Below, piece after piece: positions 6,794-49,054 of a stretch of 64,000 nucleotides of DNA. Under the pieces are notes generated by a model. The model did not search any database. It was not told the DNA's origin and worked only from the letters and a program-made list of their open reading frames with translations. Position 1 is the stretch's first letter. Each line of letters begins with the position of its first letter. The translations under genes and the position numbers were made by a program. Source of the stretch: Parasphingorhabdus sp. (lineage in GTDB: Bacteria > Pseudomonadota > Alphaproteobacteria > Sphingomonadales > Sphingomonadaceae). The stretch spans positions 5,628 to 69,627 of the forward strand of contig NZ_JBALTF010000003.1 of assembly GCF_036964675.1 (NCBI RefSeq). Reading direction: 5' to 3'.

Positions 6794-6952
6794 AAACACT
6801 ATATTCGCCATTGCGGCGACCTTGCGGGTAACCGCCGGGTCGCCGACATGGTATAAGACCGATAGATTCAACCATCACAGGGCTGGCATTGTTCAGCCCA
6901 TTTCACTATAGGGCAGCCAGAATTTGGTTCCCCACATATCGGAGTACAGACT

Positions 6953-9046
6953 ATGGCACGCAGCCATCCGCTCAAATATTATCGCAATATCGGCATTATG
7001 GCCCATATTGATGCCGGTAAAACGACGACCACGGAACGTATCCTATATTATACCGGCAAGTCCTATAAAATTGGCGAAGTGCATGATGGCGCGGCGACAA
7101 TGGACTGGATGGAGCAGGAGCAAGAGCGGGGTATTACGATTACCTCTGCTGCGACCACCTGTTTCTGGAATGCCGATGACCGCAATGGTCCCGAGCACCG
7201 GATCAATATCATTGATACGCCTGGCCACGTTGACTTCACCATTGAAGTTGAACGCTCGCTGCGTGTGCTCGATGGTGCGGTAGCCTGTTTTGATGGCGTT
7301 GCCGGCGTTGAGCCACAGTCTGAAACCGTATGGCGTCAGGCAGACAAATATAAAGTGCCGCGGATGTGTTTCATTAACAAGCTCGACCGCACCGGCGCCA
7401 ACTTTAAATTCTGCGTCGATTCGATCATTGAGCGTCTGGGCGCAACGCCTGCCGTGCTCTATTTGCCAATCGGCATCGAAGCGAGCCTGACCGGTCTGGT
7501 CGACCTTGTGAATCAGCGTTCGATCACCTGGAAGAACGAAGATCTGGGTGCTGAATATACTTATGGTGAAATTCCTGCGGATATGGCTGACGAAGCGGCT
7601 GAATATCGCACCAAGCTTATCGAGCTTGCTGTCGAGCAGGACGATGACGTCATGGAGCAATATCTCGAAGGCAACGAGCCTGATGCTGCGACTTTGAAAT
7701 CGTTGATCCGCAAGGGCACGCTGAATCAGAGTTTCGTACCAGTGCTTTGCGGCTCTGCGTTCAAGAACAAGGGCGTTCAGCCTTTGCTCGACGCGGTTGT
7801 CGATTATATGCCAAGCCCGCTCGACGTTCCCGCCATCAAGGGCGTGAAGCTCGACGGCGAAACCGAAGATAGCCGCCCATCATCCGATGAAGCGCCATTC
7901 TCCGCGCTGGCCTTCAAGGTCATGAACGATCCGTTCGTGGGTACGCTGACCTTCTGCCGCATCTATTCCGGCAAGCTGGAAAAAGGCACGTTGCTGAATT
8001 CGGTTAAGGACAAGAAAGAAAAAGTCGGACGTATCCTCGAGATGCACTCCAATGATCGCAAGGACATTGACGAGGCATTTGCAGGCGACATCGTTGCTCT
8101 GGCGGGTATGAAAACCACCACCACCGGTGATACGCTTTGTGATCTGGAAAATCCGATCATCCTCGAGCGGATGGAATTCCCTGAGCCGGTTATCGAGCTG
8201 AGCGTTGAACCAAAGACCAAGGCTGACCAAGAAAAAATGGGCGTTGCCTTGCATCGTCTGGCGGCTGAAGATCCTTCCTTCCGGGTGTCGACTGATCACG
8301 AATCGGGTCAGACGATCATCAAGGGCATGGGCGAGCTTCACCTCGACATTCTGGTCGACCGGATGAAGCGCGAATTCAAGGTCGAAGCCAATGTTGGCGC
8401 GCCGCAGGTGGCGTATCGCGAATCACTCGGCAAGGCTGTCGAAGTTGATTACACGCATAAAAAGCAGTCCGGCGGTTCCGGTCAGTTTGCGCGTATCAAA
8501 TTCGAAGTCACTCCGGGCGAACGTGGCGCTGGCATTACTTTCAGCGATGAAATCAAGGGCGGTAATATTCCGAAAGAATATATCCCTTCTATTGAAAAAG
8601 GCATGCGCGAGACGGCTGAAACCGGTTCGTTGATCGGCTTCCCGATTATCGATTTTGACATTCGCGTCTATGACGGCGCCTATCATGATGTAGATAGTTC
8701 GGCTCTGGCATTTGAAATCGCCGGTCGCGCAGCGATGCGCGAAGCGGCACAGAAATCCGGCATCAAGCTGCTTGAACCAATCATGAAAGTTGAAGTGGTG
8801 ACACCGGAAGACTATCTTGGTGATGTGATCGGCGATCTCAACTCCCGCCGTGGCCAGATCCAAGGTACTGATACGCGCGGTAATGCCCAGGCTGTGAACG
8901 CCATGGTGCCGCTGGCCAATATGTTCGGTTATGTGAACGAGCTGCGTTCCTTCAGTCAGGGACGTGCGCAATATTCGATGCAATTCTCTCATTATGAGGA
9001 AGTGCCGAGCAATGTGGCTGAAGAGATCAAGGAGAAAATGGCCTAA
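6953..9046 (+). CDS. fusA: Elongation factor G
   Basis: [24 protein letters not shown] motifs; 697 aa. Confidence 0.99.
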
Positions 9047-44599: not shown

Positions 44600-45130
44600 A
44601 TGGCCCCAAAATATCTGATTTTACTGGCGGCGCTGCCGCTTGCCCTGTCCGCTTGCAGCAAGGTGAAAGATGACTCCGCCGATGGTTCGGGGCTGTCGAT
44701 CGACTTTAGCGATGACAGCAAGCCCGACGCCGAAAAAATCAAAATTGGCGGCGGCGAGGAGGACAGCAAATTCTCGATCAAGGCTGATGGTTTCTCGATG
44801 GAAGTCGATTTGCCGTCGATCACGCTCGACAGCGATGATTTCGATATGAACAATGTCGATCTTTATCCGGGCAGTCAGATAACCAGCTTTGATATTGAAG
44901 ATGCGAAAGGCGAGGGTGGCAAGGTTCAAATCAGTTTCAAGGCACCGGCAAGTGCTGACAAGCTGGCGGACTGGTATGCGGGGCAATTGTCCGGCAAGGA
45001 TTTCGAAGTCGCACGGGACGGCACCAACCTGTCCGGAAAAACCGATGAAGGCGATCCCTTCTCGCTGGCGTTGACGGAAATATCAGCCAAGCAATCAAAA
45101 GGTGTGCTGGAGTTTTCCGAAAGCAAATAG
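44600..45130 (+). CDS. Hypothetical acidic lipoprotein
   Basis: GGAG RBS; MAPKYLILLAALPLALSAC lipobox. Confidence 0.85.
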   Translation: MAPKYLILLAALPLALSACSKVKDDSADGSGLSIDFSDDSKPDAEKIKIGGGEEDSKFSIKADGFSMEVDLPSITLDSDDFDMNNVDLYPGSQITSFDIEDAKGEGGKVQISFKAPASADKLADWYAGQLSGKDFEVARDGTNLSGKTDEGDPFSLALTEISAKQSKGVLEFSESK

Positions 45131-45194
45131 ACGCGGTGATCCAGCGCGGCTATTTGGTTAGCTGCCGTTCGTCCTCAGTCATCACACCACCTTG

Positions 45195-45270
45195 GTCATC
45201 CTGAACTTGTTTCAGGACCTCCATCGGCACTGCACAATCTCACGAGGTCCTGAAACAAGTTCAGGATGAC
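45195..45270. repeat. REP/MITE-like element with perfect 27-bp inverted arms
   Basis: GTCATCCTGAACTTGTTTCAGGACCTC (45195-45221) and its exact reverse complement (45244-45270). Confidence 0.9.
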
Positions 45271-45539
45271 GAGAGTTGGATGGTTCACTAATGCACTTAT
45301 CCCGATCCGTCGGTACTGAGCTTGTCGAACAGCTTGTCCAACAACGGTTTGATTTTCCCTTCTCCCTCACGAGAGAGGGTGATCCGCCCGTTATAGCTAG
45401 CGGTGCTCACCTGGGGATAATCGCCCAGCATCTTTGCGGCGATACCGGCTTCCCAGTTGCAAAACATGCAACATATTATTCTCCATTTTCAATTGAAACC
45501 TAATTCTCGTGCGACCATCTGGAGTTTGTAAGTTACGCA

Positions 45540-45564
45540 GGAAAAGAGATGTTTGATCGGCGTT
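45540..45564 (+). promoter_or_regulatory. ECF (EcfG/SigT-like) promoter candidate
   Basis: GGAAA-N16-CGTT versus GSR consensus GGAAC-N16/17-CGTT; just upstream of the sORF RBS. Confidence 0.4.
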
Positions 45565-45582
45565 GAAATAAGGAGAAAATCC

Positions 45583-45657
45583 ATGAGAACGCTTTTCAAT
45601 ATAGTCGCCGCCCTGTCCGTTAGCAGCATCATTCTGCTCACGACGGTTCAGGTCTAA
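45583..45657 (+). CDS. 24-aa hydrophobic small protein MRTLFNIVAALSVSSIILLTTVQV
   Basis: AAGGAG 7 nt before ATG; single hydrophobic helix; below ORF-track cutoff. Confidence 0.7.
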   Translation: MRTLFNIVAALSVSSIILLTTVQV

Positions 45658-45669
45658 GGCAAAAAGTTA

Positions 45670-45766
45670 CAATCCCGGCTGCCGCATCCTCCTCCCGATT
45701 GCGGCGCCGGGATTGGTCCAAAGGTCCGGTCCCTCCTCCATCCCCTCCCAAGAGCAGGGCCGGACC
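45670..45766 (+). ncRNA. Tandem hairpins with CCUCC anti-SD loops (cuckoo/alpha-r14/CcsR-like)
   Basis: Hairpin 45670-45715 with CCTCCTCCC (45688-96) in the loop; hairpin 45723-45766 with CCCTCCTCC and CCCCTCCC. Confidence 0.55.
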
Positions 45767-45812
45767 AGCGGACAAAATTCCATAATTCGCGATCAAATCC
45801 AAAATTTGGAAA

Positions 45813-45867
45813 TTATCCACCATATCAGCAGCAGTTTTCCACCGCTAAGTGGCCTGCCTGTGGATAA
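45813..45867. promoter_or_regulatory. Cluster of three DnaA-box matches
   Basis: TTATCCACC (45813-21), TTTTCCACC (45835-43), TGTGGATAA (45859-67; perfect TTATCCACA on minus strand). Confidence 0.6.
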
Positions 45868-45919
45868 CTTTCGTTTTTCAACTAGGAGCGACTCGGAATA
45901 CAGAGTCATATATAAGTCA

Positions 45920-46300
45920 TCGGAAGGGAAACGGACGAACCAGCGACCAGTCAGCAATGACCCGCAGGACAGCCCGGAACCCGGAAGATGATTGAGACGA
46001 CCGGTTTGTTTTTCGCAAGAAAAGGAAATTGATCTCTGGATCGATGATCGGAGAAAGTCCGAAAAGGGAAGGCGCAAGCCCGATCGGATCAGACGGACTA
46101 AGATCATCAGGTGACTGGACCAAGTGCGGGTTGGAAACCGAAGCGAGGAAGCGCAAGCGGACACGTGGAAAACCACTGACCATTAACGGATTTGGACCGG
46201 AAACCGGACGCCGAACAAGCGGCTACTGGAATCGCAAGAGGATAGTGGCCCCAACAGAGGCGCAGCGGGAGCTTATCTTCGGGTAAGCTCCCGTTTTTTT
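45920..46300 (+). ncRNA. Putative ~380-nt GGA-rich multi-hairpin non-coding RNA
   Basis: 24 GGA versus 1 TCC in 45922-46270; five GCAA-tetraloop hairpins; ends in an intrinsic terminator; no credible ORF. Confidence 0.65.
46265..46300 (+). terminator. Intrinsic terminator of GGA-rich segment
   Basis: GCGGGAGCTTATC-TTCG-GGTAAGCTCCCGT stem (cUUCGg loop) followed by a T run (46294-46300). Confidence 0.88.

Positions 46301-46834: not shown

Positions 46835-49054
<2,220 letters not shown>

Follow-up and report, generated by a model that had tools for sequence, protein, structure and literature searches.

Organization of the locus

The window analysed here, a 64,000-nucleotide (nt) stretch of contig NZ_JBALTF010000003.1 from Parasphingorhabdus sp., carries a small transcribed unit between a lipoprotein gene (44600-45130) and katG (46835-49054). 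In this unit a 24-codon open reading frame (ORF) is followed directly by two stable hairpins with C-rich loops that complement Shine-Dalgarno (SD) sequences. A sequence-only reading of the same DNA had drawn attention to the hairpins and had described them as a stand-alone small RNA (sRNA) of ~100 nt in a sphingomonad, belonging to a cuckoo/GsrN-like class and located ~1.1 kb upstream of katG. Two tandem C-rich-loop hairpins are indeed present and conserved, 1069 nt separate them from the katG start at 46835, and the lipoprotein gene places the host in the Parasphingorhabdus/Sphingorhabdus group of sphingomonads. The hairpins do not stand alone, however, but form the 3′ part of a small mRNA whose conserved 24-codon ORF had been missed. 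The features of the unit and of the region that precedes it are as follows.

45456..45472, + strand: 17-bp palindrome GTTGCA-N5-TGCAAC, with arms that are nearly invariant, without covariation, in 40 upstream regions
45492..45520, + strand: candidate promoter P1, RpoH (sigma-32)-like, ATTGAA-N16-ACCATCT, a consensus match only
45540..45564, + strand: candidate promoter P2, EcfG (general stress sigma)-like, GGAAA-N16-CGTT, a consensus match
45551..45834, strand not assigned: transcribed island that spans the ORF and both hairpins, depth 2-11x
45570..45575, + strand: SD sequence AAGGAG, 7 nt before the ATG
45583..45657, + strand: unannotated 24-codon ORF encoding the hydrophobic peptide MRTLFNIVAALSVSSIILLTTVQV
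45658..45669, + strand: A/U-rich spacer GGCAAAAAGUUA from the ORF stop to hairpin 1, with moderate conservation (74%)
45670-45715, + strand: hairpin 1 (HP1), a 16-bp stem with one bulged U and the 13-nt loop UCCUCCUCCCGAU
45723-45766, + strand (within 45716..45773 when the outer stem is included): hairpin 2 (HP2), a 14-bp stem with a 13-nt loop

Conserved loops on covarying stems

The + strand of segment 45660-45780 folds with a minimum free energy (MFE) of -62.3 kcal/mol, compared with -35.8 +/- 3.7 kcal/mol for 200 dinucleotide shuffles, none of which equalled the natural sequence (z -7.2). HP1 is 46 nt long, HP2 is 44 nt long, and the two are joined by a 7-nt linker. A 4-bp outer stem (GUCC at 45716-19 with GGAC at 45770-73) closes HP2. 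The exact nonamer CCUCCUCCC that had been noticed in the first hairpin occupies loop positions 45688-45696. Two motifs had been named for the second hairpin, and they fare differently. One, CCCCUCCC (45742-45749), lies within the loop CAUCCCCUCCCAA (45739-45751) and is the only one of the two that is loop sequence, whereas CCCUCCUCC (45731-45739) is paired in the 5′ arm of the stem, at a position that is not conserved and where relatives carry CCUUUCAC and similar sequences. The motif CCTCCTCC occurs five times in the window against an expectation of 1.6; the remaining three sites, among them 31598 and 61865, lie within coding sequence and were ruled out as further elements.

Ten syntenic loci were obtained via the flanking lipoprotein gene and span 53-88% protein identity. 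A 22-mer of a neighbouring RNA, termed RNA2 and described below, gave 36 further loci in a scan of one genome per species, all of them from this clade. The unit of ORF and hairpins is found in all 10 syntenic loci and in 44 of the 46 Parasphingorhabdus/Sphingorhabdus loci, the fetched stretch being cut off in the other two. Cultured carriers of the locus include Sphingorhabdus sp. M41, sp. YGSMI21, Parasphingorhabdus flavimaris SW-151, P. litoris, P. halotolerans and P. cellanae. These loci provide 42 distinct sequences, which keep the loops while the stems covary.

RNAalifold recovered both hairpins from a 40-sequence alignment, with 24 pairs of which 12 show compensatory changes. When this fold was supplemented with the HP1 inner stem, a corrected HP2 register and the outer stem, the resulting 35-pair model had 88.3% of its cells paired and 20 pairs changed on both sides, values that none of 500 column shuffles reached. 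As a control, partners were slid by 1-3 columns, and pairing fell to 30-53%. Changes on both sides affect five of the 10 pairs of helix 1 and four of the six pairs of helix 2 in HP1, as well as eight of the 15 pairs of the HP2 inner stem; the outer stem covaries too (UGCGA/UCGCA in locus L006).

The sequence-only reading had named loop conservation beforehand as a test, and the loops pass it: identity across the 40 homologues is 95% for the core of loop 1 and 86% for loop 2, whereas the inner stems reach 79% and 72% and the tail 48%. Loop 2 reads (C)AUCCCCUCCC in most homologues and AUAUCCCCC in one subclade. Given these identities and the covariation, we conclude that constraint acts on the sequence of the loops but only on the structure of the stems. 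Conserved loops on covarying stems therefore indicate a base-pairing or recognition module rather than a mere terminator, and the pattern of loop conservation points to sequence-specific use of the loops.

In the well-aligned helices, 38 G-U cells compare with five A-C cells, which favours the + strand. A run of at least four U residues follows HP2 in nine of 40 relatives, not including the window or its subclade. We assign the element to the + strand because of the co-oriented ORF and promoter motifs, the excess of G-U over A-C, and the U-run in these nine relatives.

A search with R1, a covariance model built from the hairpin alignment, found exactly one copy per locus (43 sources, 423 kb) and one copy in the window. 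A second match in the window, at 1530-1636 (12.6 bits), is noise with a fold z of 0.17. When metagenome contigs were scanned for the two loop motifs at the hairpin spacing, at least 120 loci matched; two are family members among the matches listed, and the other loci among those listed do not fold into two loop-presenting hairpins. A search of a plasmid collection gave katG as its only match.

A conserved 24-codon ORF precedes the hairpins

The hairpins start 12 nt past the stop codon of an ORF whose length is 24 codons in all 42 distinct homologues, although the stop codon itself varies (TAA in 28, TGA in 11, TAG in three). Variable columns number 15, 7 and 20 at codon positions 1, 2 and 3, respectively, and the replacements are conservative (I/V/L/M/F, S/T). 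Among ORF differences in the metatranscriptome variants described below, seven of nine fall at codon position 3. The SD sequence is AAGGAG or AGGAG in most homologues and is weakened to AAGGAA or AAGGAT in some. Judged by this clear coding signature, the ORF is a real gene. Its 24-residue product probably spans the membrane once, and comparison with Pfam and NCBIfam matched it to no family.

Codons 3-6 (ACG CTT TTC AAT) are invariant, synonymous sites included, which suggests an overlapping constraint at the RNA level in this part of the ORF.

The ORF has never been called in the public genomes of relatives. Hypothetical proteins are called instead on the opposite strand over the hairpins and RNA2, with differing lengths (L001 6010-6168 on the - strand; L002 6325-6633 on the - strand and 6868-7197 on the + strand; L008 7765-8307 and L009 7608-8060, both on the + strand). 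These calls are probably annotation artefacts.

Upstream signals and candidate promoters

An alignment of the 170 nt before the ATG from 40 sequences shows four conserved blocks: the 17-bp palindrome (45456-72), CAATTGAA (45490-97), GACCATCT (45513-20) and CAGGAAAAG-GATGTTTGA-N-GGCGTT (45538-64). The palindrome is a candidate regulator-binding site or, alternatively, a candidate weak terminator for DUF4197, the gene found ahead of it in most relatives. Its centre lies ~63 nt ahead of the start that the RpoH-like promoter would give, a typical position for an activator. A second invariant palindrome, TTCAATTGAA, lies upstream of the ORF at 45489-45498.

The two elements of P1, CAATTGAA and GACCAT(C/T)T, are nearly invariant in the 40 homologues. 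Of the 13 positions in the S. meliloti RpoH1/RpoH2 consensus (CTTGAA/CTTGCC-N15-16-CCTATAT/CCTATCT; PMC4843759), P1 agrees with 10. P2 is the sole match to GGAAM-N16-CGTT within the window and is present at fixed spacing in all 42 distinct homologues, two of which have the canonical GGAAC. It is one base off the sphingomonad EcfG consensus GGAAC-N16-CGTT (PMC7083833), and an example with GGAAA is known in S. melonis (PMC6599016). We regard both P1 and P2 as candidate promoters.

With a start at P1 (~45527), the P2 block would be part of the 5′ untranslated region (UTR), where it would provide the 5′ arm of a helix. Both MFE and centroid predictions pair UUGA..GGCGUU of the 5′ UTR (45553-45564) with AACGCU..UCAA of ORF codons 3-7 (45589-45600). 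This predicted helix brackets the SD and AUG; neither arm varies among 42 sequences, synonymous sites included, and the bases that do vary lie in a predicted internal loop. Such a helix could control translation in the long mRNA isoform alone.

Environmental transcription

Contigs from eight metatranscriptome runs of four studies, 90-99% identical to the region and unstranded, define the transcribed island. They cover 45551-45729, ~45565-45730, 45581-45778 and beyond, 45588-45745, 45598-45765, 45638-45800, 45641-45778 and beyond, and 45684-45834, with flanks at zero depth (45283-45526 and 45842-45892). The ORF and the hairpins are thus linked within one island. Two contigs begin upstream of the start expected from P2, at 45551 and ~45565, which fits the RpoH-like P1, and the contig that reaches 45834 fits the lack of a U-tract after HP2. 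Because the contigs are unstranded, the strand assignment rests on the arguments from the ORF, the covariation and the upstream motifs. Runs X11, X12, X33 and X34 were considered as RNA from isolates and were ruled out, since their flat coverage indicates DNA.

RNA2 and other neighbouring features

RNA2 (~45929-46262, + strand, 334 nt) lies ~150 nt downstream of the hairpin RNA and is always found just downstream of the small mRNA. It is strongly structured, purine-rich and U-poor (A 32%, G 31%, C 24%, U 13%); GGA motifs number 21 (10.3 +/- 2.5 expected), and five hairpins carry GCAA tetraloops. It is far more abundant than the small mRNA: its depth in metatranscriptomes reaches 1700x, sequencing adapters abut both ends, and at least 14 further runs contain it. 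An intrinsic terminator follows at 46264-46300, and a promoter-like block precedes it at ~45883-45913. Among 44 distinct homologues in the genus, 97% of 87 predicted pairs are canonical and 36 show compensatory changes. RNA2 gave no Rfam hit and no tmRNA call. We considered RNA2 as a sponge or antitoxin of the hairpin RNA and rejected this, as duplexes with shuffled sequences are just as stable and no complementary stretch is conserved.

A perfect DnaA box (45859-45867, TTATCCACA on the - strand) is situated ~15 nt upstream of the RNA2 promoter-like block and is kept in 44 of 45 loci. A second DnaA-box site, TTATCCACC, lies at 45813-45821. A chromosomal origin was rejected, the window having only this local box pair and no GC-skew switch; because there is no such switch, the perfect box probably reflects DnaA-dependent regulation of RNA2.

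Neither the window nor L001 has the DUF4197 gene, which in most relatives (L002-L010 compared) lies between the lipoprotein gene and the small mRNA. The corresponding region (45131-45436) contains instead a dispersed repeat and a 56-residue - strand ORF (45297-45467) that belongs to no family. The repeat is a long perfect inverted repeat (45195-45275, GTCATCCTGAACTTGTTTCAGGACCTC ... GAGGTCCTGAAACAAGTTCAGGATGAC) and is multicopy: in genomic assemblies of relatives its depth is ~18x the flanking depth, and many contigs break there. It looks like a repetitive extragenic palindromic element or a miniature inverted-repeat transposable element.

A proposed dual-function stress RNA and its rivals

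The reading that we favour, and to which we give about an even chance, is that the locus encodes a dual-function stress RNA. In this model, the single-copy locus would yield a + strand transcript of ~210-300 nt, running from ~45527 or ~45571 to ~45775-45834 and made from one or both of the stress-type motifs, RpoH-like and EcfG-like. The 5′ half would be translated into the conserved 24-residue hydrophobic peptide. The 3′ half forms the two stable hairpins, whose near-constant loops, UCCUCCUCCC and AUCCCCUCCC, mimic the 3′ end of 16S rRNA and would pair with G-rich ribosome-binding regions of other mRNAs, modulating and most likely repressing their translation under stress. Pairing with ribosome-binding regions is how CcsR1-4, NfeR1/ar14 and the UCCC loops of Staphylococcus RNAIII modulate translation. 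The module might act within the full mRNA or once it has been cleaved in the A/U-rich spacer after the stop codon. By analogy with ccaF1-CcsR, this spacer is a possible processing site for an RNase E-type endonuclease (PMC8034643). The ORF has a clear coding signature and shares a transcribed island with the conserved loop module; translation and trans-pairing are putative.

Several observations weigh against this model. Scores for every curated anti-SD sRNA family are far under threshold. The loops complement any strong SD sequence, and the targets, considered over 64 kb of genome, are putative. The -35 element of P2 deviates in the AAC triplet that is near-invariant (76/79) in characterized sphingomonad promoters (PMC7083833), and its spacer shows conservation too, unusual in a promoter, so that the block may instead be 5′ UTR structure. 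HP2 has no U-tract in the subclade of the window, so that the 3′ end is undefined, with one contig extending to 45834. The contigs lack direction and mapped ends, their depth is only 2-11x, and no separate processed sRNA species was seen among them. Finally, there is no evidence of the element outside the Parasphingorhabdus clade, a single genus-level clade, other sphingomonad genera not having been specifically searched.

A more elaborate and tentative form of the dual-function idea holds that the locus is an independently evolved, miniature RNAIII-like regulator of Sphingomonadales, with tandem promoters, two isoforms, a helix gate and an anti-SD module. Tandem heat-shock-type and general-stress-type promoters would produce two mRNA isoforms, and the 5′ UTR helix of the long isoform would gate translation of a 24-residue membrane peptide. 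Both isoforms would supply the two-loop anti-SD module, which would reprogramme translation of a stress regulon.

The chief rival, which we judge rather unlikely though well worth considering, is that the hairpins are a cis-acting 3′ UTR that blocks 3′ exonucleases, terminates transcription and, through its loops, contacts the AAGGAG of its own mRNA, thereby restraining a possibly membrane-toxic peptide. Folded type I toxin mRNAs (hok, tisB, aapA1) hold back their own translation, and a hydrophobic product of 24 residues has the size and type of type I toxins. The constant linkage of ORF and hairpins and the high degree of structure in the mRNA agree with this, as do the predicted 5′ UTR helix, which coincides with the invariant synonymous sites in codons 3-6, and the presence in the loops of the complement of the mRNA's own SD. 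The pairing between the loops and that SD, however, amounts to only ~5 bp (-7.6 kcal/mol) and is no better than with any SD, and in some relatives the SD has weakened to AAGGAA or AAGGAT while the loops stayed the same. Neither a conserved antisense promoter nor an antitoxin RNA was found, conservation past HP2 is only 48%, and the neighbouring RNA2 lacks conserved complementarity to the mRNA.

The other readings are minor. Plain transcription terminators, in tandem or bidirectional and lacking any sequence-specific role, would account for stable, GC-rich hairpins at a gene's end, for the U-run in those relatives that have it, and for an A-run before HP1 in the subclade of the window, which is a T-run on the opposite strand. 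We consider this improbable. Conservation is highest in the loops whereas the stems covary, which is the reverse of a terminator's requirements, and the U-run is missing in 31 of 40 homologues, including the window. Moreover, a consensus terminator scan did not call the hairpins, and environmental RNA passes HP2 to 45800-45834.

Slightly less probable still is a protein-binding decoy, in which an RNA-binding protein (KH/poly-C-type or DUF1127-like) would bind the C-rich loops and be titrated or recruited by the RNA. Invariant single-stranded motifs on variable stems are compatible with such a role, for which CcsR-CcaF1 is a precedent (PMC8034643), but the neighbouring genes include no candidate binder, the peptide encoded by the same RNA is hydrophobic rather than basic, and the characterized RNAs with CCUCC-type loops all act through base-pairing.

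That the loops pair with the katG leader and raise catalase-peroxidase under oxidative stress, as a GsrN-type activator would, is very unlikely, although Caulobacter GsrN offers a precedent (PMC5869019), an EcfG-like motif lies upstream, and katG is only 1.07 kb downstream. Such a link to katG had been part of the sequence-only reading and is not supported. The gene is close to the element only in the window and L001; an SDR gene intervenes in L002, L003 and L008, and katG is absent nearby in six of the 10 syntenic loci. In all loci the hairpin RNA and katG are separated by RNA2, which has its own promoter and terminator. The katG leader offers only AGGAGAG and no G-tract, whereas GsrN targets are G-runs and not SD sequences (PMC5869019), and in a crude duplex scan of 64 translation starts in the window katG ranked 22nd (-13.0 kcal/mol). 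We therefore set katG aside as a specific target, there being no specific complementarity to the loops, and attribute its adjacency to positional coincidence given the intervening RNA gene, the lost synteny and the low complementarity rank. The ecfG-nepR-phyR genes that usually adjoin gsrN are not within ~8 kb here. As a separate observation, the N-terminus of KatG resembles a signal peptide, suggesting that this catalase-peroxidase is exported to the periplasm.

Least probable of all is a functional RNA on the minus strand displaying SD-like GGGAGGAGGA loops: this strand folds equally well (-69.1 kcal/mol, z -6.3), has a sigma-70-like match at 45841-45812 and carries UGUAACUUUUUG after the reverse-complemented HP1, but the putative promoter region is unconserved (48% identity), the ratio of G-U to A-C cells favours the other strand, and the island coincides with the + strand ORF and the conserved upstream motifs.

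Implications for sphingomonads

C-rich-loop anti-SD sRNAs are central regulators of stress and symbiosis in Rhizobiales, Rhodobacterales and Caulobacter. To our knowledge, none has been described in Sphingomonadales, and we know of no characterized sRNA in Sphingopyxis other than SuhB. The locus described here is a concrete candidate from this order that is conserved and environmentally expressed, with an unusual layout that would combine a peptide and a regulator in an RNA of ~250 nt. If the tentative RNAIII-like model were true, it would supply the missing post-transcriptional arm of the stress response, of the GsrN/CcsR type, in an order for which none has been described. Two loops, two promoter motifs and a 24-codon ORF offer handles for mutation. 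In public annotations of these genomes the real small ORF is lacking, and spurious genes are called on the opposite strand over the hairpins.

Comparison with known RNA families and dual-function RNAs

Rfam 15 gave no hits at gathering score in the whole window, and a tRNA/tmRNA search found none. A relaxed-threshold Rfam search run on 161 nt returned the following weak similarities, all on the + strand.

ar15 (RF02345), + strand: 19.7 bits, gathering score 40
ar14 (RF02344), + strand: 17.0 bits, gathering score 58.8
CcsR1 (RF02791), + strand: 11.2 bits, gathering score 65.3

These are all of the thematically relevant similarities, and they stem from the anti-SD loop hairpin. A check against such family models had been proposed together with the class assignment, and for both ar14 and CcsR1 it went against membership.

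The cuckoo RNAs and their CcsR representatives form the closest comparison. According to the cuckoo survey (PMC4615179), the class is defined by two to four adjacent hairpins of 24-50 nt with helices of at least 6 bp, loops of 9-27 nt, linkers of at most 10 nt and no multiloop, each loop carrying CCUCCUCCC or a tolerated variant. The same survey reports that a screen of 2,680 genomes found these RNAs only in Rhodobacteraceae and four families of Rhizobiales, and none in Sphingomonadales; that the main locus (CIN1) adjoins a DUF1127 gene (OG1/CcaF1); and that clusters of paralogues are frequent. CcsR1-4 are released by RNase E cleavage of the 3′ UTR belonging to the DUF1127 gene, which has an RpoHI/HII promoter, and are bound by the small protein CcaF1 (PMC8034643).

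The RNA of the window fits the geometric part of this definition, with hairpins of 44-46 nt, 13-nt loops and a 7-nt linker. It also has the exact CCUCCUCCC in one loop, stems that covary while only the loops are conserved, hairpins directly 3′ of a small ORF in the same transcript, and a candidate RpoH-like promoter motif upstream. In contrast, its HP2 loop carries AUCCCCUCCC or AUAUCCCCC and not the nonamer, although a loose match to a tolerated variant is possible; its CcsR1 score is 11.2 bits rather than 65.3; it is present as a single copy and not as a cluster; its upstream ORF encodes a 24-residue hydrophobic peptide and not a DUF1127 RNA-binding protein; and its host order is Sphingomonadales. 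Because the loop 2 motif, the covariance model scores, the neighbouring gene and the copy number all disagree, the element is not a demonstrable member of the cuckoo family.

Both ar14/NfeR1 (SmelC397) and ar15 (AbcR) resemble the element in having a hairpin with an anti-SD loop followed by a second hairpin. Unlike it, ar14 has three hairpins, a U-tailed terminator and no ORF, and it is a free-standing gene under NtrC/nitrogen control.

GsrN of Caulobacter depends on sigma-T/EcfG and activates KatG through a C-rich loop that pairs with the katG leader; the targets of GsrN are G-runs, including that leader. According to the authors of that study, BLASTn matches to gsrN are confined to Caulobacteraceae, and Erythrobacter, of the Sphingomonadales, has no gsrN-like gene (PMC5869019). 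The present RNA shares with GsrN a candidate EcfG-type promoter motif, an exposed C-rich loop as the most conserved feature, and a single copy. GsrN differs in being a non-coding RNA of ~100 nt that is cut to a 5′ isoform and in its usual location beside ecfG-nepR-phyR. Its loop activates katG, for which the present RNA has neither specific complementarity nor conserved linkage. No sigma, anti-sigma or PhyR gene is present among the called genes within ~5-6 kb on either side in the 10 syntenic loci, where the called neighbours are MFS, SDR, acyl-CoA dehydrogenase, lipoprotein, DUF4197, katG, DUF1993 and other genes.

Type I toxin mRNAs (hok, tisB, ibs, aapA1) are similar in having a very small hydrophobic ORF, a compact, structured and stress-linked mRNA, and anti-SD sequences. 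Here, however, no antisense or complementary antitoxin RNA was found, and the anti-SD elements lie in the loops of terminal hairpins rather than in long-range stems.

Staphylococcus aureus RNAIII is a quorum-sensing-controlled RNA of 514 nt and 14 hairpins that serves both as the mRNA for delta-haemolysin and as a regulator with UCCC loops. Like the RNA described here, it combines in one transcript a peptide of ~25 residues and 3′ hairpins with C-rich loops, which in RNAIII pair with the SD sequences of targets. Unlike it, RNAIII comes from an unrelated phylum, is longer, has more hairpins, answers to quorum sensing, and shows no sequence homology. Its UCCC loop motif is mentioned in the cuckoo survey (PMC4615179).

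The assignment of the element to a cuckoo/GsrN-like class thus stands as a description of functional style, given a conserved and transcribed + strand RNA with anti-SD loops and stress-type motifs, and falls as a statement of family membership, given the Rfam scores. By analogy with these systems, the element most likely functions like a cuckoo or RNAIII-type module that lies outside their families.

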